A stretch of 48,913 nt of DNA, filler included, from Stramenopiles sp. TOSAG23-3 (taxonomy: Eukaryota): NCBI GenBank assembly GCA_900128585.1. It is 4 parts of 4 records of this genome, joined end to end, with 100 filler letters (N's around TTAATTAATTAA, not from the genome) between each part and the next. Parts side by side here need not be neighbours in the genome. Positions count along the whole stretch, not along the records: positions 22,443 to 44,739 come from LT642339.1; 3 more parts are not named here. The stretch is one strand, 5' to 3'. Made by a program: the position numbers and the translations under genes. The notes beneath the pieces are model-generated. The model was not told the origin of the DNA. It saw nothing but the letters and a program-made list of their open reading frames with translations, and searched no databases. Shown in pieces: positions 23,746 through 39,474 of this stretch (its first letter is position 1; each line of letters opens with the position of its first letter).

Positions 23746-24274
23746 GGAACCGTTTAACTTTAAATGTTCAAGGCGCCAAAGGTGCCGAACGTTTGCCCTT
23801 CTTGCAATGCTATTTCAAACACGGTTACTGTTTCAGTGCGACACGATTAAATTTGGAAAGCATAACTGACTCTTAACTTTTAGAAAAATGCTCTATAGAA
23901 AGAAACATTCAATGTCCCAATGTGAATATTATAATGATGATCGAATTCGAATTTCTTAATAAATAAAATAATAATAATAAAAAAAAAAAATAAAAAATAT
24001 TACTACTATAAAAAAATAATAGTAGAAGACACTTCTTCCCTACCGCGGTACAGGTATAATACCTAGGTACCGGTACATTATATTGATGTAGTATTGATTA
24101 TATCCACGATTAAGAAGAGGAGGCGGCAGAGAAGAACCCACCAGATGGTGTTGTGGGTAGGGTACGGTACGGGTATTAATGTAATACCGTCCTCGCCGTT
24201 TTAGTACCACCACCGACGACCGACGGTTTCTTTCCTGTGCTGCTGCTGTGTTATTATCATTATTTATTATCATA

Positions 24275-27253
24275 CTAGCGAGCTGACTTTGATGTTGTTG
24301 GGGTTTGTATCAGATTGGTGAGTTCAACACCTTGGTTCTGTTCGGAAAAGTTAATTTGGCTGCCAGCTGCTGTAGAACTTCTGCTGACGCCCATCTCAAT
24401 CTGATCCCAGCCTACAAACGCTTCCACCGCGTCGTTGCTATCCCCCAAGTCATTGTTCACCTCGGTAGACTCAGAATTGTTTTCACCGGCGCCCGTGACA
24501 TTCAACCCGCTTGGGTGTGATGGCAGCGGTCCGCCCTGTCTGGGCGGGGGTCCTATGGCTATTTTTCGTTCTTCCCCATCTATAGATGTGAGGTGCAATA
24601 CCGTTCTGCCGTGTTTATCAACTGAAGATAGCGTCCGTTTCGACCTAATATTTTTTGTGGAAGCAAACGACTTCATTGATTTCAATGACTTTGCACTTTC
24701 CAGATGCATGTGCCGGATAGAACGGTGGGCGTCTAATTTTTTGGGGTTGTAATAGCTATCCGTTGCGTGCAAATGCTTTTTGCTTGGGTGCCGGGGTAAG
24801 GTATCGCCGTAAGGTATCACCATAGCCAGTGGCATAGGTGGCGGTGGTGGATAGTCGTCCAGAGTCAAAGCAGCCCCGGGGCCCTCTACATACATTCTTT
24901 TCTTATGTTTGTAGCCGGCGTAGCTACCAAGTGCGCCGAACGACAGGGTGATCACTATAATGGCAATTGCAATCGAGTCTAAATTTCCATTTCTACTTTT
25001 TCCTTGTCCTCCTCCCCCAAAAAAATTCACCGTTTCTGTTGTGTTGTCGTTAATTCGACAATTGCGATCTATGGCAGACAAAAGCCACGACTCTTCCCGG
25101 TCTTTCTCTGCCTCTGATCTGTCCGGCACCAGGGAGCTTGCTATTCCGACAGTGCCATGCGCAACAATTATGGACGAAGCGTCGGAATGTTTGACAAGAA
25201 CACACGCTTTCCCCACAAGATGGCCCAATCCACTATACGGGATGGACTCTTTGAAACGGGTCATGATGTTAGCAGAGCGGGACTGGAAAACGCCAAAGCT
25301 TCCCACTTCTGTAGCCCCCACGCCTTTGTTTTGGTTGCAAGACGTTGCACTCTGCAAACTGTCTGGCACAATGGGCCCGCCAAGAAACGACCCGCCTCTG
25401 TCGTCGCATTTGGAGTACAACAATGTCTGGTACGTTGCATACCTCTCAATGCCCGAAAAGAAGGCGTCGGCCTCAAATGCAGCACTGTCGCTGCCCGTGC
25501 TCCTAGAAAGGCGCATTTCAACTCGCCCTTTAATCCCCAAGGTCGCGTTTTCCAATTGGCATATCGCTTCGGTCCCAGCCCCCAATGCTGCGCCCATGGC
25601 GGAATTCCTTACTTCGCCGTTTTCATTTGGGTTTGATTGTCGTGGAGGAGTACCAACGCCGATCACTCCCCATAGCATTGGGTTCCCCACGCGCCCGTTT
25701 GGTTGCGAGCCGTCGTCGTGACTTTCGTACACGACAAACATTCTTCCAATGATGGACTTTACCGAATCTCTCAAGGAAACGCTGGCCGTTTCTCCTTGAG
25801 GAAAGCTTAGAAAGTGCACGCAAGAACCATTCACGACCTTAGCGGACTGGATATTCCCAAGGTCGCCAACCATGCGCATCAAGAATGGTGGTCGCCCATG
25901 AAAGTTGTTAGCGAGTGTTGGGTTAAACCGCGCAAGGTCCGATGCGCCTCGATAGTCCCCGTGTTGAAGGATGCCGATGCCGTACCGGGAGCTTGCTGTG
26001 GTTCCTGGAGAGTGTCCGTCAAGCTGGATTCGGATGGATATTTCGCCGTTGCTTCGCTCCGAACCAAAAATTTCAACCAGTCCAGACAACGAGCTTTCAT
26101 TAGTCGTCGGTATCAGCTTACCCCGCCCATACGGAGCAGAAAAACTCGTGCAGTCGTAATCCACCGAAGCGATTTGCTCTGTTGCTTCGATCACCGACGG
26201 GTGCAATTCAGATGCCATCCCAATCACCCCTCGAGCGACTAAATGTTGGTTTTGACTGTACTCAACGCAGCCTGAATCCCAAGATTCGCAAATTACGTCA
26301 GGCTTTGAGTAAATGGCGCACGATCGGCCCACCAAGTCCGCAAATGACACGGGCTCCCGGAACGCTCCCCTGTACTTGGCATTGCCTCCCCCATTTGAAC
26401 CTTGGATATTCCCCAAATCGCCAAATCGGCGCCCTGGGGCGCATGGGATCCCATGCTTGCTATTGACGTTCCCGTACACTTCTCCTAGTGAATTGGAAGA
26501 TAGATCAGCAAATTTTTGAATTTTTAACGCGTGGGAGCCTCCAGCCACGTTGCTTAATTGCACAAATACTTCGTGCCCAGGAACACCTCTGTTTTGGTGG
26601 CTTATAAGCATCACCCCCTCGACATCTGGGTGCGCGCTTGTGCCTGTGAAAAAACACACTGCTTTGTCAATGGGGTAGAAATCGTGTATTTCAGACGACC
26701 CCCCAGCAATATTGCGAAGGCCCAGCGACAGACCAACTACACCGGTCGAGACTGCGGTGCACACGTCGTCGTCCTGCGTGTTCGGAGATACAAATAGATT
26801 CGGGCAAGCTTCCACAATGACACTCCTTCCCACAATAGAATGGTTGTCTCTTTTCGTCAATGAAAACGTTGAGTCTATTGGAGCGACTATGCCCTGGGGC
26901 ATCGTTCCATTGAATAATAGATACAAATGGTTTGCGTTAAACCCCACAACCGCCAAGTCGTTCGACGGGACAGCCGCTGCCAAAGGTTTTTCAGCCGACG
27001 GGTAAACTGATACTTTGTAGCGAACGGATGCGTTCATGCCATTTAACTGAAAAGACACAGACACTGCGGAGCTAGATATATCTTCATCGAAGGTTATATT
27101 TCCATTTATGCCACCCCCGGCCACTTTCGGCAAAACGACAACAGCCCGCTTAAAATCTGCCGAAGCAGAAGCATCCCTGCATATACCCAATGTCAGGCAC
27201 AGCACGTGGAAATATAACACTGCCCAAGGAGATAAATTCATGTTATTGCGCAT
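24275..27253 (-). CDS. Type I membrane protein with four tandem Cu/Zn-SOD-fold domains lacking most metal ligands
   Basis: Signal peptide; four repeats with SIVGRSVIV / LVGRSCAIY / SIIGRMFVVY / LVGKACVLV and terminal GVVG/GVIG/GVIG/GTVG; GDLGNI twice; TM IAIAIIVITLSFGALGSYAGY; Pro-rich tail. ATG at 27253 (or 27241). Confidence 0.8.
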   Translation of the reverse strand: MRNNMNLSPWAVLYFHVLCLTLGICRDASASADFKRAVVVLPKVAGGGINGNITFDEDISSSAVSVSFQLNGMNASVRYKVSVYPSAEKPLAAAVPSNDLAVVGFNANHLYLLFNGTMPQGIVAPIDSTFSLTKRDNHSIVGRSVIVEACPNLFVSPNTQDDDVCTAVSTGVVGLSLGLRNIAGGSSEIHDFYPIDKAVCFFTGTSAHPDVEGVMLISHQNRGVPGHEVFVQLSNVAGGSHALKIQKFADLSSNSLGEVYGNVNSKHGIPCAPGRRFGDLGNIQGSNGGGNAKYRGAFREPVSFADLVGRSCAIYSKPDVICESWDSGCVEYSQNQHLVARGVIGMASELHPSVIEATEQIASVDYDCTSFSAPYGRGKLIPTTNESSLSGLVEIFGSERSNGEISIRIQLDGHSPGTTASSRYGIGILQHGDYRGASDLARFNPTLANNFHGRPPFLMRMVGDLGNIQSAKVVNGSCVHFLSFPQGETASVSLRDSVKSIIGRMFVVYESHDDGSQPNGRVGNPMLWGVIGVGTPPRQSNPNENGEVRNSAMGAALGAGTEAICQLENATLGIKGRVEMRLSRSTGSDSAAFEADAFFSGIERYATYQTLLYSKCDDRGGSFLGGPIVPDSLQSATSCNQNKGVGATEVGSFGVFQSRSANIMTRFKESIPYSGLGHLVGKACVLVKHSDASSIIVAHGTVGIASSLVPDRSEAEKDREESWLLSAIDRNCRINDNTTETVNFFGGGGQGKSRNGNLDSIAIAIIVITLSFGALGSYAGYKHKKRMYVEGPGAALTLDDYPPPPPMPLAMVIPYGDTLPRHPSKKHLHATDSYYNPKKLDAHRSIRHMHLESAKSLKSMKSFASTKNIRSKRTLSSVDKHGRTVLHLTSIDGEERKIAIGPPPRQGGPLPSHPSGLNVTGAGENNSESTEVNNDLGDSNDAVEAFVGWDQIEMGVSRSSTAAGSQINFSEQNQGVELTNLIQTPTTSKSAR

Positions 27254-28440
27254 TTGACAGGGGTTCCCGCATTGGTTTGTAATAACTAGGAGGCTGATTT
27301 GCACCCATTTTGCAACGACTGACAAAAAGAAGCGACAGCAAGTACTAATAAATGGAAGCTTGGACCGGAGTGGTGGGGCCTCATATTGTTGTCATCGAAT
27401 CCGCCTTGGTAATATTTATAGATACCTTGGTAATAGATATCCTCATCATCATCAGGTCTTCTCCTCTTCCTCCTCCTCTGATGATGCATGCAGTGAGTGT
27501 GGTGCATGCACCAACAATTAAAAAAATTAAAAAAAAGAAGAAGACGACTTGTACCATGCCTGTACCATCCTTATTATACCGGTATTAATTGTCTCTATTA
27601 TTCGTGCTGCTTTTTTATTACTGCGACGTTGTCGTCTGTTTAAAACCGCACGGTCCGGTCCCTTCGGAAGAATTATTATCGATTTTACAAAAAAAAGAAC
27701 ATTTATTTATTATAGAATACAGTATCATCGTCGATAATAAAAATTATTAAAAAAATATAATAATAAATAATAATATCTATTACTAATATTAATATATAAA
27801 AGTATAATATCAGCACAGCAGCAAGTTTTTAAAATAATTTTTTTTTTGTAAAGTAGAAAAAAATAATATAATAAAAAAATATCTTCTTCTTTTTAATTAT
27901 ATTTTATTATTATTAGCCCCTATTTATACGTATTCCAAATAATATCCTCCACCAATTATTAAATTTTATTTATAGCTTTATTTTTATATATTTAATAAAT
28001 ATACATAACCACAGCAAAGCAGATAACTTGTGGAAATTATACATTGTATTATTATATTTATAAAAATTATTGGGATCTTTTTTCTACTTCTTCATACTGC
28101 TTCTTCGCTGTTGTTTATTTGCACACATTGTGTTGTGTCATTTTTCATTACCCGCTACGCTACCGGTATTATTATTACGGAATGGGTACCTGGTACCGTA
28201 GTACGGAAGCTGTGATCCAGCATCCAGCAACGCCTCCTCCGTCCTCGTCGTCGATGGAGAGGATGATGATGATATAGAACGACTATTATTTATTAGGCAG
28301 CGAAGAACAGCGAAAGCATATGCTCGTAGAGTAATACGAAAAGCTGACCAAGAAATATTTTTCAGGTGTAGGTTTCATTTTTCTTGTTGAAAATTATTGG
28401 CGGTCGAGCCTTTCAGTTTGTGCAACGATTAGACAACGCC

Positions 28441-31400
28441 ATGCAACTTTATCACGATAAAGCTGTGAAGCTGCAAGTGGTTTTGCTGGGGGTTTTATAC
28501 CTACTCTGCAGCACCCAAGGGTCGCATTCGCCGGCCATTGAAACCCTGGTACACGGGGCACACAGTGCCCCTGAACATTTTTCGCACGTCCATAGTGTCC
28601 AACTAGACGACACCGGTTTCAAAGAAGACCCGTGGCGAGTCGGCGTACAGAAAGGGAGGCGCTTGGAAGAGTTGGGCTCCGATGGGTTTCCACTTCCCTC
28701 AACGGCTCGCACGCCTCCCTTTGGGAAGCACGTATTTTTCAGTATGGCCGTGGAAGGTCGCGTCAACGCAACGTTCAACAAAGTCAAGCTGAAGCATCAC
28801 AGAAACCTTGTTCATGAAGATGCTGTACTAGAATTTCACGACAACGGCGGTTCCCCCCGAACTGTGCCGTTTCCCAACTCCGTGTACCATGCCAAGGACG
28901 ATGACGGAAAACGATGGATATACTTATCTATGATCACCCAGGACAGGTTCAAAGTTTGGATTCACGACCACGGTCAGACCATCGTGGTTGAGCCCACACA
29001 GCACATTCAAAAATATCCTCACCACAGTCGAAGAAGGCTAAAAGGGTTTTTCGATGCTCATGAAAGAAAATTTGGGGCATTCCCGAAATTGTTGGCGTAT
29101 GAATCAAATCAATTCACAGCAAAGCAGGGAGAATGTAGAAGAAAACTGGGGAGCGAGCGATGGGACAATTGGAAAACGCGCACGGACGAAAAATCGGCAA
29201 AACCCGTTTCGCCGACAAGTAATTTGGGACCATACACACCACTGGATTGTGGCCTTACAAGTTTGCATATAATGCAGATAGGGTACGGAGTCGACACGGG
29301 CTTTTTTAAACGTATAACGGGAGACACTGGCACTGGCAGCGCGGAAGCTTACCTTGAGGTTGCAGCAGAAGTTGCGATAATGACGGCATTAATCAACCCA
29401 CCGTACATTCAGCAATTCAATGTGTTTTTGCAAATAAAATATATCAACGCATTTCACAGCACCGCTTCCGGTCCCTCTTGGAACGATGAGCCACTTAATT
29501 GGGCCCAAGCTTCTGGGAGTACCCTACGCACATACGGGTGCAAACATTCGCGGAATGGAGAGGGAAGCAGTCAGTATTTGCAAAAAATTGCGTCTTGGGG
29601 GAGTGCAAATATAGAGAGCACACCTTGCAAAAACTGTGGCTCTTTTCAAGTCTTTACCGCGTGTTATAAACCTTCTGGGGTAATGGGGATCGCATTCTTG
29701 GGCGTTGTTTGCAAAAAGAGCCATTTTTATGGCATGAACAGTTACTATACGCATGGAAAACAGACGATGGGAACCTTGGCACACGAACTGGGGCATACGT
29801 TTGGCGCAGGCCACTCTACCCGCGGCGTGATGGATTACACTACGTTTGATGAACTCAGGTTTTGGAACGAGAAATGGAGCGGGCAAACAAACAATTATGC
29901 AGATATGTGTCGTGCAATAAATAGTGGTAAAAATGGTGGGTGGGGTAGGGTGACGAATTGCTTTCTGCCTTTGACGAACGTAGGGCCAAGTTACACCGAC
30001 CGTTGCGGCAACTCTGTAGTCGAGGAGGGAGAAGAATGCGATGGCGGCGATTGTTGCACGGACAAGTGTAAATTAAAAGCTGCGGCACAGTGCGATACAA
30101 CTTTTACAATTATGAAAAAAGATGGAACACACGAAGAGATTAACGATGGGTGTTGCACGGACCAATGCAAATTTGAATTGCCGACACAGCAATGCAACAT
30201 AATGCCAACGATACACTCCAACGACGTGCGAGTTGGGGTATGCATGAACGGAGAGTGCAGGGACTTCTGCAAAGCACCGGCGAAAACAGGCTACCGGTTG
30301 TATGTTAACCAGTGCCCATCAACCATCCTAGATCCATGCAAACTGCGATGCGCATCAGGTTCTATATCGTCGCAGAACGCGTGCAAGGACGGCAAAGAGG
30401 TAAACGCTAATATTGCGGAGTTTCTGCCTGCAGGGACCGTGTGTGGAGTTACGCCAGTCCTCCAAAGGTGCTCTGGGACTGGCAAATGTTGCCCTGACTG
30501 TCAGAATGGGGGGGCTGCAATTACAGACGCTAACGAGCATTGCGCGTGTTCGTGTGCAGAGGGCTTTTCTGGTAATAATTGTGAAAACGATGATGGGGGT
30601 GGGTCATCGCCGTCACCTGGGCCATCTTTACCGCCCTGGGTACTTATCAATGCCCCAATCAAAGATGCAAAATGGAACGTTGGAGCAAAAAATCGACCGG
30701 TTCCAGAAATCCACCAGGTTCTGTGGCAATCGGGGAATGTTGGATCAGGCACGTTTACAATTGAGATCGAACTTAAAGTGTCTGGCAGCGTTTATAAAAA
30801 GGCAACTTCGCTGACCTCCGACGCCAAAGATACAGGGATTTATCAAATAGATTTGGACGCTTTGTCGGACGACCTGAACACTTGCGGTCCATACCGCATC
30901 AAAATGCAATTGAACTCCGAAGGCGGAGCATCTTTCTATTCTCAAGATTTTACTATCATGCCTGCATCGGAAGCTGTGGTTTCCATCACACTTAAAAATA
31001 TGGACAATGGGCTGGGGACTACAACTCTCATAAAAAATGGAAGAACACAAATAACCGCAACACGAAGCTGTAAAGACTCGAGCAGTTTTACCGTGGGCTT
31101 TGACTTGTACAGAAATGGTTCCAAGGTTAAGGAGATAAACAGAGTATCTGGTCGAAACCAGAACTATGTATCCCAAGAGTGGACGGTTCCGATTGATCTG
31201 CCTGTTGGATCATCCCATACGATTTTGGTAAAATGGTCGGGGCTTCCGGCAAAGCATAGCGAAGTCGTTGATGTCTCGACGCCATCGACGCCCGCGACCG
31301 TTCTAGTTACCGTACCGAAACCATTCTGGGTTATTGACGTTGTTGACGATGCCACCATTATGTGGAGCACAACGGGCCCAATATACTATGTTAATGTCGA

Positions 31401-34400
31401 TGTGTGCCGTGTTAGTGATGGCGTGGTTATGATGTCCGTTGGTAGCAATGTCCCAGCAGCCCAGGGCAGTATAAAATTTAGTGTTTCCAACAGCGATTTG
31501 CCAGAAAAAAGTAAGGGATATTTTGCACGAGTCTCAAAAGCAGATGATTCAAACGTGAAAGGAGACTCACCCCCAATAAGTACGAAACCGCCACCAACGG
31601 GATTGGAATTTACACTTACCAAAATCACTGTGTCGGAACAATGTTTGGAGAGTTCCGCTCCTTACATCATTTCCTGGATAGCTACAAATGCCCCAAAGGG
31701 GGAGGAGGTGGAAATTGGATATACCCGAGAAGGCACTAAGATTGCAACTGTTATGGCCCGGGGTGTCAGTGCCACCAGTCTGTTCCATGTGTTTTCAGCA
31801 CCAGTCGACATTCGGCCAGCGTCCTATTCCTTCACCGTTCGGTCGATGTTAGTACCAGACGAAATATATGGCACAACCTCGTCTTTCGTTACCATGCGAC
31901 GAGAATTAACCGTCTCGATATTGGATCAACCCGACTGGCACCACGGCGCGTCTGCTCTGCTGCAATGGACCGTCACGGGGTGCCCTCTTGCGAAAACGTT
32001 AGAGATGGACGTCTACCTTGTCGATAATATTGGCAATGTTGTCGCGCTGTTAAAACATAATCTAGAAATTGCAGCGGTCGGGCAAGGTGAGTTAAAAATA
32101 GACTCTGTAAGCTCTCAGTGGCCAGGAGGAAAAAGTTACATGGTTAAAGTGAGAAACAAAGCGAACGGAAGATTTTGGACAAGTTCTAAATTTATGATAA
32201 ATGCGGCAGAGGCTCTTGAAATAAAATCTATAACCCTGCCGACAGAACATAGTGGTAAAGTTGTACTTGCCTGGAAGACGGAAGGCTACGTGCCGGATGT
32301 CAACATTGAAATATTTAAGGACGGGAGCTTGTACAAAACGCTGGCCAGCCTTTGGCCAAATGCGGGAAAGTTCATGTTTTCCACAAAACAATATCCTTCC
32401 TCGTCACAATATCGCGTGAAGATCGCTGGCATGGGAACCACAAAACCAGCGGCGGCAATTTCGGACCCTTTCGCACTGAATGAAGGCAGCGATTTGAGCA
32501 TAAAGATTCTGAAGCCCGAGTTTGGCAGATCTTACCTTGCAGGGGAAACCATTGGCATTACATACGAAACTAAGGGTGGAACAGGTTCAGGCAATGTATT
32601 CGTTGATGTCTACCTTTGCGACGCAGATGGTAGCACTAAATTAATGAACATATTCACTAAATCGCAAAGCCCCAAAAATCAAAAGGCCGTGAAGCAATTT
32701 TCGCTGCCACAAAATGGATCGTATTTGAGCGCATCGATCGGTTTTAGAATATGTATAGAAAAGTGGCAAGGCAATTCTGGCACATCGTTTAACCAAAATG
32801 TTAAGGGGGCTGAACATGCTAGTCAAATGTTTTACATTGAGGCCCTTCCTTCCATAGAAATAGCTTCAGTAACGTTTACCAACATTGGAGAATACATGTT
32901 TATTAAATGGCGGAGCACGGGAATGCCGGTTCGCACTTTAGACATCTACCTGGAAAACGTGATGGGAGGAGAAGCGGGTGGGACAAAGCACACATTGGCA
33001 GCAGACTTGCAAAATATCGACCAAGTGAGGGTGTTAGTTCCAGCCAACAGTGGGATAAAGAACGAGACGGATTATACCCTTCGCATTGAAATCAGGGTCC
33101 CCCCGTCAAAGATTGACACAAAAACGTTTTCCCACTCTATGCTGATACGGTTTGCCTCGTCGTCTACGCATTTGTCCCCAAAAGTCTTGCAACCGGTTGC
33201 ATCCAGCGCAGTTAGCAGCAGTGAAAATTTGATAATAGAGTGGCAAGCTTCTGAAGGTGCCGCATTTGCCACAGTTACTATGGAACAGTTTGGAACGGCC
33301 ACTAGAAACAGCTTACTGACGACCCTCGCATCGTCCGCAGCTAGTACAGGATACCTGAAAATAGATTTGTCCTCGCACTCAGTAATTCCTAATCTTCGGA
33401 ATGTGGTGCAGGTAAAAATTTCGGACAAGAACAGCCAGGTAATACATGAGCTTACAAGCGAGGTTTTCTCAATAACAGAACCCGAAGCTAAAGTGGAGAT
33501 TATCTCTGTGTCTGGGGGCGAACGTGCTGGTTTGTTGCCGTACAAGATAGTGTTTGGGAGACCGTTTGATTTCTTGTGGAGCATTCAAGGAAATGTAGGA
33601 TCAGTCGCCCTGGAACTTTGGGAGTGTGAAACGGCAGGCTGTTACAACTCTGAATTCGCAATGTCTATTGACTCGGTCGACTCGTCGAATTACTTGAACA
33701 AATCAAAACATGAATTGAAAACATCTTGGACTCCGTCATCGTGGACGCAACCACCAAAGGTGGATGGTTTCTATCGAGTGGTTGTTCGATCAATACAATA
33801 CTCGAATAAGTATTTTGCAACAAGCCCAGAAATTCTCACAGTGTCCCCTAATATATGTATAATTGGGGAAGGGGGCTGCTCGAATGTTCAAATTCGCCTC
33901 TTGGTTGATTCTCCAACTCAGGACCAAGTCGTGATGACCGGCAGCCTGGTGCATATAAACTGGAAAATTATCGTATCGAACCCGAATGAATGGAGGCCTC
34001 CCACGTACGTATCCATCAGTCTGCGGCGAAATGGAAAGCATGTTTTGACAATCGCACCAGAGGTTGAAAATACTGGTTCTTACGCATGGCCTGTCAGCGA
34101 AGCATTAGAAGGCAACGACAAATATTCTGTAATCGTAAAAGCTGTCACTGTTTCGGGAAGTTCAAAGGCAGTTGCTTGCCCGAATACAAATGCCGCGCAA
34201 GACGGGAGTTGCCAAAGCGGGTTATTCCGAGTAAGAAGCTTGAACACTGCCGGTGCAATTAGGGAGCTTTTTCTTACTTTAGAACAGGAAAACAGAGATG
34301 ATAGTAGTGGTTGGAGCCCAGTGTCGGATGGTTCCGCGCTTCATACGAACGTGGTCTCGGTTGGTCAGTTCTTGCGCGTGTCCTGGTTTTCCGTAGGTTC

Positions 34401-36186
34401 CGTTCGTGGCCCGTTCACGATTGCCATAGTTGACAGCAACAATGCAGTGCTTGCCCTTTGGGAAGACATCGTCGAAGTGGCGGGTACATTGCGATTCCGA
34501 ATACCATCGTCTATACTGTCAAAGCTAAAAAACGATGTCTACAGAATAAGAATACAGTCATCAAACCGCGCACTCCGTTTCTCTAAGGGGTTTTACATTG
34601 TAAGCAGGAAGAGTCTGAACGTACTGCCGCGAACAAATATGGTTCGGGGTAGTACATTTTTTTTGGAATGGTCACAGCCTGAAAAACCGTTTATGTTGCG
34701 TTCGCGTTTCGTTCGGCGTGCGTTTATAGAAGGGTTTTCAGGCAGCTCGAAACGACGCTCTCGGCAGCTGTCTTCCAGCGAGGGTAAAATTATGTGGAAA
34801 ACTGCGCGGGGAGTTTCCTGCGTTCCGTTTATATGGGAAAACACGATGCAGAACCAGTGCGTTTCGGGTGTGAAACCGACAAAGTTTGATGGCCAGCCGT
34901 GGTGCGCAACGGCCGTGAATAAGGGTGGGGAACCAATAGCGACGGGTGTATGCCCCCAATTGGAAGTATTTGAAGTGCAGCCAGGAAAAGCGTCGGCCGA
35001 TTCAAAAGTCCTGGACACCAACACCGGATATGTGCGGGTAACACTCCCCGGGGGGTCAGCTTTACCAGGAGCTGGCGATGGCTACTATATGGAAATGTTT
35101 GATGGAAATACTGGAAACGTAGTTGCAAGATCGAACTCGTTTAGCATAGCGTGTTCGCCTTTCGAAATACAGTTCGAGTACGAGGCAGTAAATTCGTCTC
35201 TCTCGCAGTGCCACCAGCAAATAATCGACTCGACCGGATTTTCAAAGGACAAAGTTAAATTGACAAAGCAAGATGGGGCAGAGGCTACTGTGTGGTTGCT
35301 AACGGGTGGACTGGAAGACACGGACTTTTCGAATTGCCCCGAGCAAAAGCTTTCGACTATATCGAAACTCCCGTGTGTTCATCAAAGTTCGTTTTCCTTC
35401 AAAACCCTTGACCTGTATTCAGAGGCTCCACCACAGCCCGAAAGTAAAAGAAATCAAAACGCGGAAGACAATACGTTGCTTATAGTCGGTATTTCAATAG
35501 GGGCCATGGTCCTTATTGGAATCGTACTTGGCGCGTATTATATCCGCTCCCACAGAGAGCAGTTGCAAAAGATGTACGGGAAGTGGAAAACAGCAAAATT
35601 GACTTCAAAGACGGTTTATTATGTGAAACCAAGCACAGGAGAAACGAGCTGGCTGCCCAGCTTTTTTGCCGACAAACAACAACGTGAAGAGGACAGCACG
35701 CCAAATAAAGAAGTTGCTAATAAAGAAGTTGCTGGTCTCAGCTTGCCAGAGGGGTGGCACGAAGGAAAGGCTGACGACGGAAGAGTTTTCTATTTTCATG
35801 ACGATGGGGAAAGCACTTCTTGGGAACTCCCTCAAGGTCAGCCGAAGAAAACTGCAAAGCAGATCGATGCTGCGAAGTTGCCACCAGGTTGGCACAAAGA
35901 CATCGCTGCGGCTGGTAGAATTTATTACTGGCACGACGATGGGAAAACGACTTCGTGGGAGTTGCCAGATTGGATTCCGGAAGGTTGGGGCCTGAATCCT
36001 GGCGCCAATACTGGCACTCCAGGAACGTTGGCAAAGAGCTGGAAAAAGGTAGAAATAGGAGGGAACGGGAAAGAGATACACTACCACTACAACGAAGAAA
36101 CATGCCAATCTTCATGGGAGAACCCACAACAAAAGCAAGAACGCAAAAAGCCTGCAATAGCTACGGAAAAGGGCGACTGGTTGTAA
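28441..36186 (+). CDS. Giant ADAM/reprolysin (M12B)-like metalloprotease: prodomain, catalytic, disintegrin, EGF, about 13 Ig-like repeats, FN2, TM, 4 WW domains
   Basis: Signal peptide; HELGHTFGAGH plus Met-turn GVMDY; CGNSVVEEGEECD disintegrin; CSCAEGFSGNNCE EGF; repeated W..G..Y..S..F.I beta modules; FN2 CVPFIWEN...PWCAT; TM; WW motifs. First ATG at 28441; no introns needed. Confidence 0.9.
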   Translation: MQLYHDKAVKLQVVLLGVLYLLCSTQGSHSPAIETLVHGAHSAPEHFSHVHSVQLDDTGFKEDPWRVGVQKGRRLEELGSDGFPLPSTARTPPFGKHVFFSMAVEGRVNATFNKVKLKHHRNLVHEDAVLEFHDNGGSPRTVPFPNSVYHAKDDDGKRWIYLSMITQDRFKVWIHDHGQTIVVEPTQHIQKYPHHSRRRLKGFFDAHERKFGAFPKLLAYESNQFTAKQGECRRKLGSERWDNWKTRTDEKSAKPVSPTSNLGPYTPLDCGLTSLHIMQIGYGVDTGFFKRITGDTGTGSAEAYLEVAAEVAIMTALINPPYIQQFNVFLQIKYINAFHSTASGPSWNDEPLNWAQASGSTLRTYGCKHSRNGEGSSQYLQKIASWGSANIESTPCKNCGSFQVFTACYKPSGVMGIAFLGVVCKKSHFYGMNSYYTHGKQTMGTLAHELGHTFGAGHSTRGVMDYTTFDELRFWNEKWSGQTNNYADMCRAINSGKNGGWGRVTNCFLPLTNVGPSYTDRCGNSVVEEGEECDGGDCCTDKCKLKAAAQCDTTFTIMKKDGTHEEINDGCCTDQCKFELPTQQCNIMPTIHSNDVRVGVCMNGECRDFCKAPAKTGYRLYVNQCPSTILDPCKLRCASGSISSQNACKDGKEVNANIAEFLPAGTVCGVTPVLQRCSGTGKCCPDCQNGGAAITDANEHCACSCAEGFSGNNCENDDGGGSSPSPGPSLPPWVLINAPIKDAKWNVGAKNRPVPEIHQVLWQSGNVGSGTFTIEIELKVSGSVYKKATSLTSDAKDTGIYQIDLDALSDDLNTCGPYRIKMQLNSEGGASFYSQDFTIMPASEAVVSITLKNMDNGLGTTTLIKNGRTQITATRSCKDSSSFTVGFDLYRNGSKVKEINRVSGRNQNYVSQEWTVPIDLPVGSSHTILVKWSGLPAKHSEVVDVSTPSTPATVLVTVPKPFWVIDVVDDATIMWSTTGPIYYVNVDVCRVSDGVVMMSVGSNVPAAQGSIKFSVSNSDLPEKSKGYFARVSKADDSNVKGDSPPISTKPPPTGLEFTLTKITVSEQCLESSAPYIISWIATNAPKGEEVEIGYTREGTKIATVMARGVSATSLFHVFSAPVDIRPASYSFTVRSMLVPDEIYGTTSSFVTMRRELTVSILDQPDWHHGASALLQWTVTGCPLAKTLEMDVYLVDNIGNVVALLKHNLEIAAVGQGELKIDSVSSQWPGGKSYMVKVRNKANGRFWTSSKFMINAAEALEIKSITLPTEHSGKVVLAWKTEGYVPDVNIEIFKDGSLYKTLASLWPNAGKFMFSTKQYPSSSQYRVKIAGMGTTKPAAAISDPFALNEGSDLSIKILKPEFGRSYLAGETIGITYETKGGTGSGNVFVDVYLCDADGSTKLMNIFTKSQSPKNQKAVKQFSLPQNGSYLSASIGFRICIEKWQGNSGTSFNQNVKGAEHASQMFYIEALPSIEIASVTFTNIGEYMFIKWRSTGMPVRTLDIYLENVMGGEAGGTKHTLAADLQNIDQVRVLVPANSGIKNETDYTLRIEIRVPPSKIDTKTFSHSMLIRFASSSTHLSPKVLQPVASSAVSSSENLIIEWQASEGAAFATVTMEQFGTATRNSLLTTLASSAASTGYLKIDLSSHSVIPNLRNVVQVKISDKNSQVIHELTSEVFSITEPEAKVEIISVSGGERAGLLPYKIVFGRPFDFLWSIQGNVGSVALELWECETAGCYNSEFAMSIDSVDSSNYLNKSKHELKTSWTPSSWTQPPKVDGFYRVVVRSIQYSNKYFATSPEILTVSPNICIIGEGGCSNVQIRLLVDSPTQDQVVMTGSLVHINWKIIVSNPNEWRPPTYVSISLRRNGKHVLTIAPEVENTGSYAWPVSEALEGNDKYSVIVKAVTVSGSSKAVACPNTNAAQDGSCQSGLFRVRSLNTAGAIRELFLTLEQENRDDSSGWSPVSDGSALHTNVVSVGQFLRVSWFSVGSVRGPFTIAIVDSNNAVLALWEDIVEVAGTLRFRIPSSILSKLKNDVYRIRIQSSNRALRFSKGFYIVSRKSLNVLPRTNMVRGSTFFLEWSQPEKPFMLRSRFVRRAFIEGFSGSSKRRSRQLSSSEGKIMWKTARGVSCVPFIWENTMQNQCVSGVKPTKFDGQPWCATAVNKGGEPIATGVCPQLEVFEVQPGKASADSKVLDTNTGYVRVTLPGGSALPGAGDGYYMEMFDGNTGNVVARSNSFSIACSPFEIQFEYEAVNSSLSQCHQQIIDSTGFSKDKVKLTKQDGAEATVWLLTGGLEDTDFSNCPEQKLSTISKLPCVHQSSFSFKTLDLYSEAPPQPESKRNQNAEDNTLLIVGISIGAMVLIGIVLGAYYIRSHREQLQKMYGKWKTAKLTSKTVYYVKPSTGETSWLPSFFADKQQREEDSTPNKEVANKEVAGLSLPEGWHEGKADDGRVFYFHDDGESTSWELPQGQPKKTAKQIDAAKLPPGWHKDIAAAGRIYYWHDDGKTTSWELPDWIPEGWGLNPGANTGTPGTLAKSWKKVEIGGNGKEIHYHYNEETCQSSWENPQQKQERKKPAIATEKGDWL

Positions 36187-36765: not shown

Positions 36766-39474
36766 TTACGCCCGTCTCCCGAAAGCAACACTCGTGCCCA
36801 CCGCCACCTTTTCTTTCTTTGCTAGAACGTTTTTGGCCAGTGCTTTTGCCTGCTGCTCTTGCAAGGGGTTCTTCTTGTGCCCCAACGCTACGGCTATGGC
36901 AGAAGGACTGTTTTTCCCTCTGTTTAAGTTGCCAAGGGATGGCAAATCTCCGCGCACAGCAAGAAACAATAACAATATTGTACCGGTGTAGACAAACACC
37001 AAAACAAAAGACAGAATGCATGCAATTTGCGCGGTCAACCCTTTTAGCGCGTCTCCACAATTCAGGGCACTCATGGATAAAGATACCAGGCTTAAAAAGT
37101 CAAACACCAAAAACACTTGGAAATATTTCTTGTCGGGTCCAAAGTATTTGTCTCGTTTGCCTTTGTCCAAGATCGATGCCGACAATTGGACGCTAGCGAC
37201 CAAAATGTGCACGGACGATATGGTGCACAAGGCTATGGCAGATGCATGCATTGCAAAGAATGGGCTAATTGCTACAAGCACCAAAATAGCAATCGAAGCC
37301 AAAACCTGGGCTGCGCGGCAATTTCGCATCAATCTATCGCCTTTCCCACGGTGAGTTCTTAGCTCCGCGCCAAGGCCAGCATCTGGGGCCCCATCAACGT
37401 GCCATGCTGCGTACGTAAGAAACGACGAAATGCAACAGAGTATACACGTAAGGAACATGCATGTTTGCATAAATATGAACGTAGTCTTTGGCGCGGGGTT
37501 AAAGTTTTTTGTCTCTATGGAAGAGACAGTCACCGCAGAAATACCCGTCAACATTACAAACGAAAGATCAAGGAATGCGAAGACGCAAATTGCAGTATGA
37601 TTCTTTGTAAATTGGTCTGCGCTGAACCCGATCTTGATACACTTTTGCCGACCCAAAAGTTTAAACGTGGCCCAAAGAAAGAGAAGAAAGTGCGAACTTA
37701 TCCACCACTGGGACAACCAACTGGACTCAAAATCTGTCATTGCAAACAGGATTGAGAACACCACTATCGACGCGACAGCTTGTGACACATAGAGGGCTAC
37801 ATACGCGCACGTTTTCTTCAAAGAAAACCGATCCATCGTTCGATCTACCGCGGTGTTCTTACGAGATCGCGTGTGTTTCAAATGGGAAGGAAATTTTGCC
37901 GAAAACTTTCCCGACCGATGGGCATTGTCTAACTGGCGAGAGAACCGACCTTCGAAAAGCGCGTGGTGGGCGTTTGCGAAGAATAGTACAGCCAGGAAAA
38001 CAAACACCACGGTTCCCCCGACCAACCCACCTTCGTAATTTATTTCCCCGACCAACTCTATCGCTGGTATGGCACGCACGCGGGACCGCACCTCCCAGCC
38101 AGGCGATATGAATGCCGTGTCGCACTCTTTTGACAAGTAGCAGTTGGTCTTTTCAAGCTGCGTCACGTCGTAGTTGGGGACATCCCTGGGGCGTTTTGAA
38201 GTCTCATCGAGCATGCCTGCCGGCGCGCATAAATTCCCGTAACCCGCATACTTTTGCAACTCGGTCTTTGGGGGACAATCGGGTTTGTCTCCCGTTTTGT
38301 AAGGCTTTTCTCCAGTAAATTTTGCAGCTGCAACATAGTTGCATACAATAAGCGTACCTCCGAAAGCGAGGTTTGCAATTGTAGGGCACTTTGCAACCCC
38401 ACAGCCAACGCGGTTCGATGTAGCCCAAATGGCTTGGATGTAGTGCCGACACTGGCTTGGGTGCGTGCACTGCCCAGAGCCATACGCATAGTCATTCCCT
38501 TCATCGTTCCACAAATCAACGCTTAACGTGGGGCTCATGTCAAATCCGACCGCTAGATTTTCTCCTACTTGTCCTTTCCCGCCTTCGCTCTGGTAGTCAT
38601 TATCACGATTGTCGTTCTTATTCCACGCACACAAATTGGCGTGCTCTTGTGCGACCTTTTGCAGTTTTTCGTCCCAGGCCATATATTCCATGTTAGTGTG
38701 GTCTTTCGTCGACGCGCGCCATTTGTTATGGGCCTGTAAAAAAGCACTCTTGTCCTGCTCGCTCACCGAGCCCGTGCCCATGTCCAGAGAACGCCCTTTC
38801 CGCATCCGGGGCTGGGGCGCATCGTTGGACTTATGCTGGTCCCCAAAGTTGCGTTTGGTCAATTCTGAAGCCCCTCGGCTGCTACTAATTACAATTGTAC
38901 CGACCTTATCAGAGGCCCGCGAAAGTTGCCGCCGACTTTCGCACGTAGGCAACTGCCATGAGCCACTGCGATAGTCTGCATTCGTGCACGCAGGGCATTC
39001 TGCTACGGTTTTTCCGTGGCACGGAGGGCGGCAGTTTGCAATTGGCTGAGGGCACCCTTGACTTGAGGACGATACGCACAGCTTCATGTAAGGGCAGCAG
39101 AACCCCCCCGTTTCACACTGGTCATGACTGAGGCATTTTGAACAATCGTTTTTAACGCTGTTCTTCGCAATGCACTTCGTTTCTTTGTTCTCTGGGTCTT
39201 TCAGAAAGTTTGCGTCCGTCGAAGTGATGGGCTTGTTGTCCTTGCTGCACTGCATCGGGGCATTCAGCTTGTCCTCGTCCGACGTTTTGAACGTAACATA
39301 TCGGCACCATTTATGCTTTGAGCACTCAAGCTGGCAGTTTGAGAGACTATCGACGCTTGGAACAACCAAAGCAGGCTTGTTGCACACTTGGTTATCGCCT
39401 CTGCTGTCGAAGCTTATTGGGCAGGATAGGCCACCCTCTGCCAGGAAGAGCAGGAAGAGCAAACGAACCATCAT
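36766..39474 (-). CDS. Secretory-pathway membrane protein: PAN/apple-like, Cys-rich module and CAP (SCP/PR-1) domain, followed by about 9 TM helices (two MARVEL-like 4-TM units)
   Basis: Signal peptide; CAP motifs FLQAHNKWRA, WDEKL...AQEHANLC, GENLA, WNDE, HYIQAIWATSNRVGCG, LIVCNY; one TM followed by two 4-TM blocks. Confidence 0.8.
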   Translation of the reverse strand: MMVRLLFLLFLAEGGLSCPISFDSRGDNQVCNKPALVVPSVDSLSNCQLECSKHKWCRYVTFKTSDEDKLNAPMQCSKDNKPITSTDANFLKDPENKETKCIAKNSVKNDCSKCLSHDQCETGGFCCPYMKLCVSSSSQGCPQPIANCRPPCHGKTVAECPACTNADYRSGSWQLPTCESRRQLSRASDKVGTIVISSSRGASELTKRNFGDQHKSNDAPQPRMRKGRSLDMGTGSVSEQDKSAFLQAHNKWRASTKDHTNMEYMAWDEKLQKVAQEHANLCAWNKNDNRDNDYQSEGGKGQVGENLAVGFDMSPTLSVDLWNDEGNDYAYGSGQCTHPSQCRHYIQAIWATSNRVGCGVAKCPTIANLAFGGTLIVCNYVAAAKFTGEKPYKTGDKPDCPPKTELQKYAGYGNLCAPAGMLDETSKRPRDVPNYDVTQLEKTNCYLSKECDTAFISPGWEVRSRVRAIPAIELVGEINYEGGLVGGTVVFVFLAVLFFANAHHALFEGRFSRQLDNAHRSGKFSAKFPSHLKHTRSRKNTAVDRTMDRFSLKKTCAYVALYVSQAVASIVVFSILFAMTDFESSWLSQWWISSHFLLFLWATFKLLGRQKCIKIGFSADQFTKNHTAICVFAFLDLSFVMLTGISAVTVSSIETKNFNPAPKTTFIFMQTCMFLTCILCCISSFLTYAAWHVDGAPDAGLGAELRTHRGKGDRLMRNCRAAQVLASIAILVLVAISPFFAMHASAIALCTISSVHILVASVQLSASILDKGKRDKYFGPDKKYFQVFLVFDFLSLVSLSMSALNCGDALKGLTAQIACILSFVLVFVYTGTILLLFLAVRGDLPSLGNLNRGKNSPSAIAVALGHKKNPLQEQQAKALAKNVLAKKEKVAVGTSVAFGRRA

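Follow-up and report, generated by a model that had tools for sequence, protein, structure and literature searches.

A single intron-free open reading frame (ORF) of a marine stramenopile encodes a four-domain protein with the fold of superoxide dismutase (SOD) and none of its metal sites, and the product is probably a metal-free pseudo-SOD that serves as a receptor or adhesin. The gene (24275..27253, minus strand, 992 codons plus a stop, 992 amino acids) lies in the part of the window that comes from LT642339.1 (positions 22,443 to 44,739); by the window we mean the whole stretch of DNA analyzed, 48,913 nucleotides composed of four parts of four records of Stramenopiles sp. TOSAG23-3 (GCA_900128585.1), with 100 filler letters between each part and the next. 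A first-pass annotation had described the range 25140-27160 as a membrane-anchored quadruple pseudo-SOD with the fold kept and the copper ligands lost. This range corresponds to residues 32-704, i.e., to the four repeats inside the 992-residue ORF, and both halves of that description stand: the SOD fold is kept in all four repeats (in AlphaFold2 models and in alignments to SOD structures), and no copper ligand set survives in any of the four domains, nor in those found in the orthologues P0154, P0004, and P0005. The gene and its parts are as follows.

24275..27253, minus strand: whole coding sequence, 992 codons plus stop, without intron
27158..27253, minus strand: predicted signal peptide, residues 1-32, with a hydrophobic core at residues 7-25 (hydropathy 1.72) and ASA before the presumed cut
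26714..27157, minus strand: domain 1 (D1), residues 33-180, degenerate SOD-fold barrel (iterated profile and AlphaFold2 model)
26210..26698, minus strand: domain 2 (D2), residues 186-348, SOD-like (Pfam, ligand table, and structure alignment)
25649..26146, minus strand: domain 3 (D3), residues 370-535, SOD-like, the best conserved of the four (Pfam, ligand table, and structure alignment)
25139..25597, minus strand: domain 4 (D4), residues 553-705, degenerate SOD-fold barrel with no ligand kept (iterated profile and model)
24974..25138, minus strand: stalk, residues 706-760, one predicted helix and then a low-confidence stretch, with conserved C732 and N737 (model and alignment)
24911..24973, minus strand: transmembrane (TM) helix, residues 761-781, followed by KHKKR (Kyte-Doolittle hydropathy 2.1)
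24278..24910, minus strand: cytoplasmic tail, residues 782-992 (family tail alignments)

How readily are the four domains recognized from sequence? Pfam PF00080 (Sod_Cu) matches the protein in two stretches (E 2.3e-24; score 86.7 bits, cut-off 28.9). Taken singly, D2 (E 1e-10) and D3 (E 4.5e-11) both pass, D1 falls below the threshold (E 0.021, 15.7 bits), and D4 gives no match. A sequence search of the PDB returned SOD1-type enzymes at E ~4e-8 for residues 197-349 and 390-534, and the Protein Atlas gave one generic SOD-domain cluster only (score 0.91). HMMER, run exhaustively against 1.84 billion representatives, returned 215 proteins at E<=1e-3; the best 150 of these 215 were used, and all domain and architecture counts rest on a set of 151 proteins built from the matches listed. 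A profile for the query domains, iterated on the HMMER matches with Z set to 1000, finds D2 (residues 186-348, E 4e-32) and D3 (370-535, E 1e-30) with ease and also recovers D1 (24-176, E 6.6e-5) and D4 (553-705, E 1.6e-4), the last of which is more evident in the orthologue P0004 (E 2.7e-10). Repeats 1 and 4 are thus the more degenerate ones, as the first reading of the sequence had it. By the profile envelopes, which make these lengths approximate, the linkers measure ~9 (D1-D2), ~21 (D2-D3, with a predicted helix), and ~17 residues (D3-D4). Both D2 and D3 keep the full-length Zn-loop (xFNP...HGxP...RxxGDLGN) and the loop VII motif of bimetallic SODs; in D3 the latter reads DDGxQPNGxVG when aligned to P0144 and P0153. 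With Zn-loop and loop VII retained, the pseudo-SOD domains appear, on sequence grounds, to descend from the bimetallic SOD type.

Does any domain still possess a metal site? We tabulated eleven positions (H46, H48, C57, H63, H71, H80, D83, H120, D124, R143, and C146) in 279 domains of 151 proteins, using what we take to be the human SOD1 numbering, transferred through the canonical SOD matches P0144 and P0153. None of the query domains has an intact Cu histidine set (H46, H48, H63, and H120; 0/4): these positions are occupied by K/S/A/E in D1, K/Q/V/Y in D2, G/L/R/Y in D3, and L/-/P/V in D4. The Zn set (H63, H71, H80, and D83) is likewise intact in 0/4, with D2 and D3 keeping the H71 and D83 equivalents only, and D1 and D4 neither. 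In D2, H46 has become K, H48 Q, H63 V, H80 R, H120 Y, R143 L, and C146 R; in D3, H46 has become G, H48 L, H63 R, H80 M, H120 Y, R143 P, and C146 W. The ligand positions of D1 read K S - A L H L E. Across the domains, the R143 position holds A, L, P, or a gap, and the C146 position T, R, W, or a gap, so that no domain has a Cys at C146. The motifs quoted in the first-pass annotation are all present, namely YGIGIL (for HGFHIH), ARFNP, RMVGDLGNI, and VVY in D3, where alignment to P0144 and P0153 places a Pro at the R143 position, and HALKIQ, RRFGDLGNI, and AIY in D2; the ligand table also bears out that the H71 and D83 equivalents are the sole ligands left in these two repeats. Among the complete domains of all 151 proteins, by contrast, 180/236 have an intact Cu set and 174/236 an intact Zn set.

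The loss is shared by the family. Both sets are incomplete in all domains found in P0154/P0003, P0004, and P0005, and the replacements in D3 are fixed in 4/4 orthologues (G46, L48, R63, H71, D83, Y120, P143, and W146), as are V63, R80, D83, and Y120 in D2. The H71 equivalent is kept in 3/4 orthologues in D2 and in 4/4 in D3, and the D83 equivalent in 4/4 in both. A copper site rebuilt from other histidines had been named as an outcome that would speak against metal loss; at the level of sequence none is apparent, since the only invariant ectodomain histidines in the orthologue alignment are H241 and H452. Histidines conserved in 3/4 orthologues number three in D2 (H227, H241, and H267) and none in D1 and D4. 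Invariant cysteines in the ectodomain number nine; D2 holds four of them (271, 312, 322, and 329), and C150 and C165 are conserved in D1. The four D2 cysteines are most simply read as two new disulfides that would replace C57-C146.

Is the metal-free state maintained? The family is small, comprising six clusters at 90% identity with the same ectodomain and tail, and its orthologues are 33-40% identical to the query over the whole length. Two orthologues on metagenome contigs (L001/L002) share 88.6% amino acid identity, with a nonsynonymous-to-synonymous substitution ratio (dN/dS) of 0.29 overall and of 0.30 in D1, 0.22 in D2, 0.23 in D3, 0.31 in D4, 0.11 in the TM helix, and 0.33 in the tail; by this comparison, the gene appears to be under purifying selection in its metal-free state. 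In D3, invariant positions make up 13/28 of the Zn-loop equivalent and 23/37 of strand 7, loop VII, and strand 8, against 16/97 elsewhere, whereas they amount to 12% of D1, 10% of D4, and 4% of the stalk. Because the invariant residues cluster in the D3 loops, the former active-site channel is the most constrained part. The gene is also found in RNA libraries: contigs from four runs of four studies, one of them oligo-dT, cover 24104-27505 in pieces at >=95% identity and without joints, which is consistent with an unspliced mRNA, and gaps in this cover within single runs carry no evidential weight. Of 24 public runs listed, 20 hold the stretch or part of it (14 studies), and the organism-labelled runs are marine or seawater metagenomes, apart from a possible source run. 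Upstream of the start codon, at 27423 and 27461, one RNA contig from run X20 departs from the window sequence through an 8-base deletion and a 6-base insertion in what is presumably the 5' leader; variation between strains is the probable cause.

How are the four barrels arranged? AlphaFold2 models were built for residues 25-753 (26-row alignment; pLDDT [predicted score in the local distance difference test] 78.1, predicted template modeling score [pTM] 0.73) and for residues 25-352 (19 rows; pLDDT 82.2, pTM 0.85). Both models show eight strands per domain, with the pLDDT of D1 mostly 80-94, and the predicted domains have the eight-stranded Greek-key beta-barrel of SODs, single domains aligning to SOD structures at Z 18-20 and pairs at Z 27-28 (VIA-align). 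Searched against 48,161 chains, D1+D2 found a tethered SOD1 dimer, 6dtk_A, as its top match (Z 27.2, root mean square deviation [rmsd] 3.0, 276 residues aligned), with the next non-SOD fold at only Z 6.9; the top match of D3+D4 was again 6dtk_A (Z 28.5, rmsd 2.6, 275 of 312 residues). Taken singly, D2 matches the bacterial Cu/Zn SOD 7b4o (Z 20.6) and domain II of human CCS (1do5; Z 20.2), and D3 aligns with dozens of SOD1 structures at Z ~18. By their alignment to 6dtk_A, D1 and D4 are therefore modeled as SOD barrels, and the ectodomain is predicted to form two intra-chain, SOD1-dimer-like pairs, D1-D2 and D3-D4. The relatives provide independent support for this pairing: in natural tandem SODs, odd and even domains fall into separate clades (Shimodaira-Hasegawa [SH]-like support 0.86-0.98), and the domain count is even in 82/91 multi-domain proteins, both of which fit a two-domain duplication unit.

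The query is one member of a broader class of tandem SODs, anchored in the membrane and drawn from marine metagenomes, in which the separate odd and even clades suggest an origin by duplication of a tethered-dimer unit. Several members (P0008, P0009, P0012, P0018, and P0026, all from marine metagenomes) carry 4-8 tandem Cu/Zn-SOD domains with full Cu and Zn sets—8/8 Cu sites are intact in P0008—together with a signal peptide and a C-terminal TM or glycosylphosphatidylinositol (GPI)-like end; they go unmentioned in the review of SOD-repeat proteins discussed below (PMC13017621). A second group of SOD-like membrane proteins without metal sites is also present (P0014, P0017, P0019/P0175, P0024, P0071, P0074, P0080, P0105, and P0147); its ligand pattern is SH..RDW / SQ.TRRDH, and several of its gene models seemingly end just past the TM helix. 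In the domain tree, a split with support 0.78 separates all pseudo-SOD domains from 61 canonical ones, and the links between the query and the second group are weak, with D2 joining domain 1 of that group at an SH-like support of 0.49 and D4 joining its domain 3 at 0.36. In open-access papers and preprints we found no account of this larger class, nor of non-opisthokont, transmembrane, or metal-free tandem SODs of protists.

What lies on the other side of the membrane? A signal-like N terminus, with a cleavage site presumed from the -3/-1 rule, and a TM helix with a Kyte-Doolittle hydropathy of 2.1 followed by KHKKR predict a type I topology, with nine N-x-S/T sequons in the ectodomain. Membrane anchoring is common among the multi-SOD relatives, as a C-terminal hydrophobic segment is present in 53/91 multi-domain matches; the long tail alone is special to the pseudo-SOD family. 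Among these 53 proteins, more than 200 residues follow the segment in this family only, whereas 0-80 residues follow it in the other anchored relatives, which are thus GPI-like or short-tailed. The TM helix and the ~210-residue tail were correctly read at first pass; to call the tail Pro-rich was a mild overstatement, as Pro makes up 8.7% of it and there is one PPPPPMP run. With the TM helix placed at residues 761-779, 213 residues follow it, and the tail itself measures about 207-211. Invariant residues occupy 41/211 positions, and eight motifs are invariant in 5/5 family tails: EGP..A, PPPPP.P (802-808), LP.HPS.K (819-826), S.YNP..L...RS (833-845), GR (882-883), IG.P (900-903), LP.HPS..N (910-918), and WDQ...GV (949-956). 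The tail has no Pfam family, and a single-sequence search with it returned its own cluster alone. A tail profile matches, among longer proteins, only PF00080-bearing proteins of the same family (6/6), and the C terminus of P0175 matches weakly (E 2.5e-4) through a shared motif, GR..IG..LPxHPS, which links the tail to the second pseudo-SOD group. Two copies of LPxHPSx(K/R) fit what we take to be the class II SH3-ligand pattern PxxPx(K/R), a lead rather than a result.

How does this protein compare with known systems? That the SOD fold may be kept with copper lost is an idea already in print. The nearest published architecture is that of the Cu-only SOD-repeat proteins (CSRPs) of animals, treated along with CCS domain II and fungal and oomycete Cu-only SODs in a 2026 review by Peterson and Culotta (PMC13017621). 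In the passages of that review that describe them, CSRPs are built of 4-12 Cu-only repeats that keep the disulfide but possess neither a Zn site nor loop VII; their linkers measure 5-9 residues, and they are GPI-anchored or secreted proteins of opisthokonts (PMC13017621). They resemble the query in having a signal peptide and, on a single extracellular chain, several SOD-fold domains in tandem; certain members are expressed and folded without a Cu site. The first-pass statement that CSRPs keep the Cu histidines is therefore only partly right: the same passages describe arthropod and tardigrade CSRPs, and oyster dominin, as lacking an obvious Cu site and as probably acting otherwise (PMC13017621). 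The differences are several. D2 and D3 of the query retain the Zn-loop and loop VII that the Cu-only CSRP domains lack; the canonical disulfide positions are lost and other cysteines conserved, whereas CSRP repeats keep the disulfide; two of the three linkers are ~17-21 residues long rather than 5-9; a TM helix and a conserved ~211-residue tail are present, whereas CSRPs have no cytoplasmic part; and the query comes from a marine protist, not an opisthokont. Set against their published description, the protein is not a CSRP. A term search of the whole text of PMC13017621 found transmembrane, stramenopile, diatom, and algal forms unmentioned. Among insect SOD6 proteins, a passage of PMC6379424 gives BmSOD6 a predicted C-terminal TM segment, and one of PMC9046187 reports a developmental, non-antioxidant phenotype for TcSOD6.

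Single-domain precedents are also instructive. Domain II of CCS is a SOD-like barrel that no longer has a Cu site and acts by contacting proteins at the dimer face of SOD, and D2 superposes well on the human form (1do5_B; Z 20.2, rmsd 2.4, 141 residues); CCS, however, is a cytosolic protein in which copper-binding parts, an Atx1-like domain and a C-terminal motif, lie to either side of one SOD-like domain, whereas Pfam finds Sod_Cu alone in the query and its architecture is extracellular. Dominin, a cavortin-type oyster protein, is extracellular and Cu/Zn-SOD-like and is described as lacking an intact Cu site and SOD activity and is said to act in bacterial recognition (PMC13017621); it is a plasma protein reported to bind metals (PMC6530089). 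The comparison with dominin is one of descriptions only, and the passages on this extracellular plasma protein mention no anchor or tail, unlike the query. The engineered construct 6dtk and the natural tandem SODs P0008, P0009, P0018, and P0026 share the two barrels per chain packed in the manner of a SOD1 homodimer, and many natural forms have a signal peptide and C-terminal anchor as well; the natural forms differ in having complete Cu and Zn sets and tails of 0-80 residues. A Bacillus subtilis protein, 1s4i, titled a "SOD-like protein" in the PDB, has the Cu/Zn-SOD fold and aligns with D2 (Z 14.3, rmsd 2.8, 132 residues). Unlike the query, it is presumably a bacterial single-domain lipoprotein, and we take it to lack some Cu ligands and activity. 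What sets this protein apart is the descent from the bimetallic type, the loss of the disulfide, a TM helix that leads into a long and conserved tail, the predicted paired barrels, and its occurrence in a marine protist, within the larger set of membrane-anchored tandem SODs.

What might such a protein do? It would be a glycosylated type I protein of the plasma membrane, its ectodomain made of two SOD1-dimer-like barrel pairs in which all four barrels lack the Cu site, the Zn site, the catalytic Arg, and the canonical disulfide. As a pseudoenzyme it would act by binding, as a receptor or adhesin. In the inner domains, D2 and D3, the loops that make up the superoxide channel of real SODs are kept, with invariant Arg/Lys, Tyr, His, and Asp in place of ligands; we infer that an Arg may play the part of the metal ion toward the Asp83 equivalent still present, holding the loops in shape and leaving a putative conserved pocket for an extracellular ligand. 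On the inner face, the LPxHPSx(K/R) pair and the PPPPPxP run look like docking sites of the SH3, WW, or EVH1 type, presumably so by their consensus, and through them the tail would link the ectodomain to the cytoskeleton or to adaptors in the cytoplasm. Type I topology and a conserved tail fit a surface receptor or adhesin, and, by analogy, CCS domain II, dominin, and the Cu-less CSRPs in the passages of the review that treat them would offer precedents for SOD-like domains without copper that act by binding (PMC13017621). Of the earlier proposal that the barrel had been repurposed as an adhesion or receptor ectodomain, the barrel and the ligand loss thus hold up, and the role is a reasonable reading of both.

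Several considerations weigh against this assignment of a binding role, which is itself drawn from lost abilities and architecture. Rather than pairing in two disulfides, the D2 cysteines 271, 312, 322, and 329 could make up a metal site, and the conservation of the loops could equally stem from inter-domain contacts. AlphaFold was trained on many SOD1 dimers, which may bias the predicted packing, and for D1 and D4 the models were built on shallow alignments (4-5 family sequences). The dN/dS values come from a single orthologue pair, the tail motifs are assigned by consensus pattern rather than by a tool, and the RNA-library contigs fall short of strict proof of transcription, DNA carry-over being possible.

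Could the barrels instead be a passive surface coat or spacer, i.e., rigid glycosylated modules with a tail that serves for sorting only? The nine sequons and the disulfide-rich, rigid design of paired barrels would suit this role, as would the poor conservation of D1, D4, and the stalk, yet we consider it unlikely: a spacer would not need former active-site loops in D2 and D3 that are far more conserved than the barrel strands, nor does the role sit well with eight invariant tail motifs spread over ~170 residues. Distinctly unlikely, too, is that the protein has remained a redox enzyme or metalloprotein by way of a rebuilt site, formed for example by the D2 cysteines or by His71/Asp83 with new partners; it could then bind Cu(I) or Zn, or act as a sensor or buffer of metal outside the cell. 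The invariance of C271, C312, C322, and C329 (4/4), which fall in the equivalents of the Zn-loop, strand 7, and loop VII, is compatible with such a site, as are the retained H71 and D83 equivalents (3/4 and 4/4 orthologues in D2, 4/4 each in D3) and the metal binding reported for SOD-like dominin in the passage cited (PMC6530089). However, no domain has three invariant histidines; His63, His120, and Arg143 are replaced in every domain of every orthologue; the positive charge of Arg/Lys at ligand positions speaks against the binding of cations at these sites; and cysteines in the oxidizing exterior are more likely disulfides, new ones being expected once C57-C146 is gone.

The protein might also be an accessory subunit of the true membrane-anchored tandem Cu/Zn SODs present in similar samples, docking as CCS domain II does in order to load copper, stabilize, or regulate them. 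D2 aligns equally well with CCS domain II and with SODs (Z 20.2 vs 20.6), and anchored tandem SODs with full ligand sets (P0008, P0009, P0018, and P0026) occur among the closest relatives. We nevertheless hold this to be very unlikely, because in the models the SOD1-type dimer faces are already occupied within the chain, the Pfam scan found no copper-handling motif or HMA domain, and the long conserved cytoplasmic tail is unneeded for such a role. That the gene is a decaying SOD or an annotation artifact without function is hardly credible, even with all catalytic residues lost and D1 and D4 barely recognizable by sequence, given a frame open over 992 codons, the same architecture in orthologues 33-40% identical, a dN/dS of 0.29, and its presence in RNA libraries and many marine metagenomes (20 of 24 listed runs). 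A pseudo-SOD receptor or adhesin therefore remains the best explanation.

The surrounding locus is compact and eukaryotic, with long intron-free genes for a kinase, an ion channel, a FAM194 homologue, a CAP-domain protein, and an ADAM-like WW protein of 2581 amino acids. The last of these adjoins the pseudo-SOD gene (28441-36186, plus strand, intron-free) and has an unusual domain combination: a signal-like start, a reprolysin/ADAM-type metalloprotease (HELGH), a Kre9/KNH-like immunoglobulin-like domain with a long repetitive region, a TM helix, and, in its cytoplasmic part, at least two WW domains. As a candidate partner, whose WW domains might bind the Pro-containing tail, it was dropped. 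The orthologue contig L002 has unrelated neighbors (BLASTP of three pairs of neighbor proteins from the window and L002 gave best E values of 0.89, 0.91, and 5.3), and because the gene neighborhood differs between the two, adjacency lends the WW-domain protein no support as a partner. Farther along, 36766-39474 (minus strand) encodes a 902-residue protein with a CAP (cysteine-rich secretory protein) domain at residues 246-380 and no Pfam match in the remainder. Two antisense ORFs overlap the pseudo-SOD gene itself (24960-25721, plus strand, 253 amino acids; 25157-25636, plus strand, 159 amino acids) and are probably chance frames in a GC-richer coding region.

What would a metal-free pseudo-SOD mean for marine protists and for this protein family? 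It would be an example of an enzyme fold recruited to a non-catalytic surface role outside animals and fungi, when SOD repeat proteins are placed only in opisthokonts in the passages of the review that concern them (PMC13017621). More tentatively, and with rather less than even confidence, we can imagine an undescribed branch of marine-protist surface proteins built from tethered SOD dimers: most would be anchored, multi-site Cu/Zn SODs exposed to the seawater, and the pseudo-SOD family and the second group would be an offshoot in which Arg takes the place of metals in a metal-free ligand pocket and an SH3-type signaling tail makes for a new receptor class; we regard this broader scheme as possible but doubtful. 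There is a practical side as well. One source names P0155 and P0156 (both in the P0004 cluster) "Cu/Zn superoxide dismutase" despite no intact ligand set, probably a functional misannotation taken from the domain name, and through such labels pseudo-SOD genes would inflate SOD counts in metagenome and metatranscriptome surveys of oxidative-stress capacity in the sea. The pairing of the barrels, in which a tethered SOD1-like dimer would be what was duplicated, is a structural proposal open to test, and, as the relatives of the protein indicate, tandem Cu/Zn SODs with a membrane anchor make up a wider class in seawater organisms, one that may bear on how plankton deal with extracellular superoxide.

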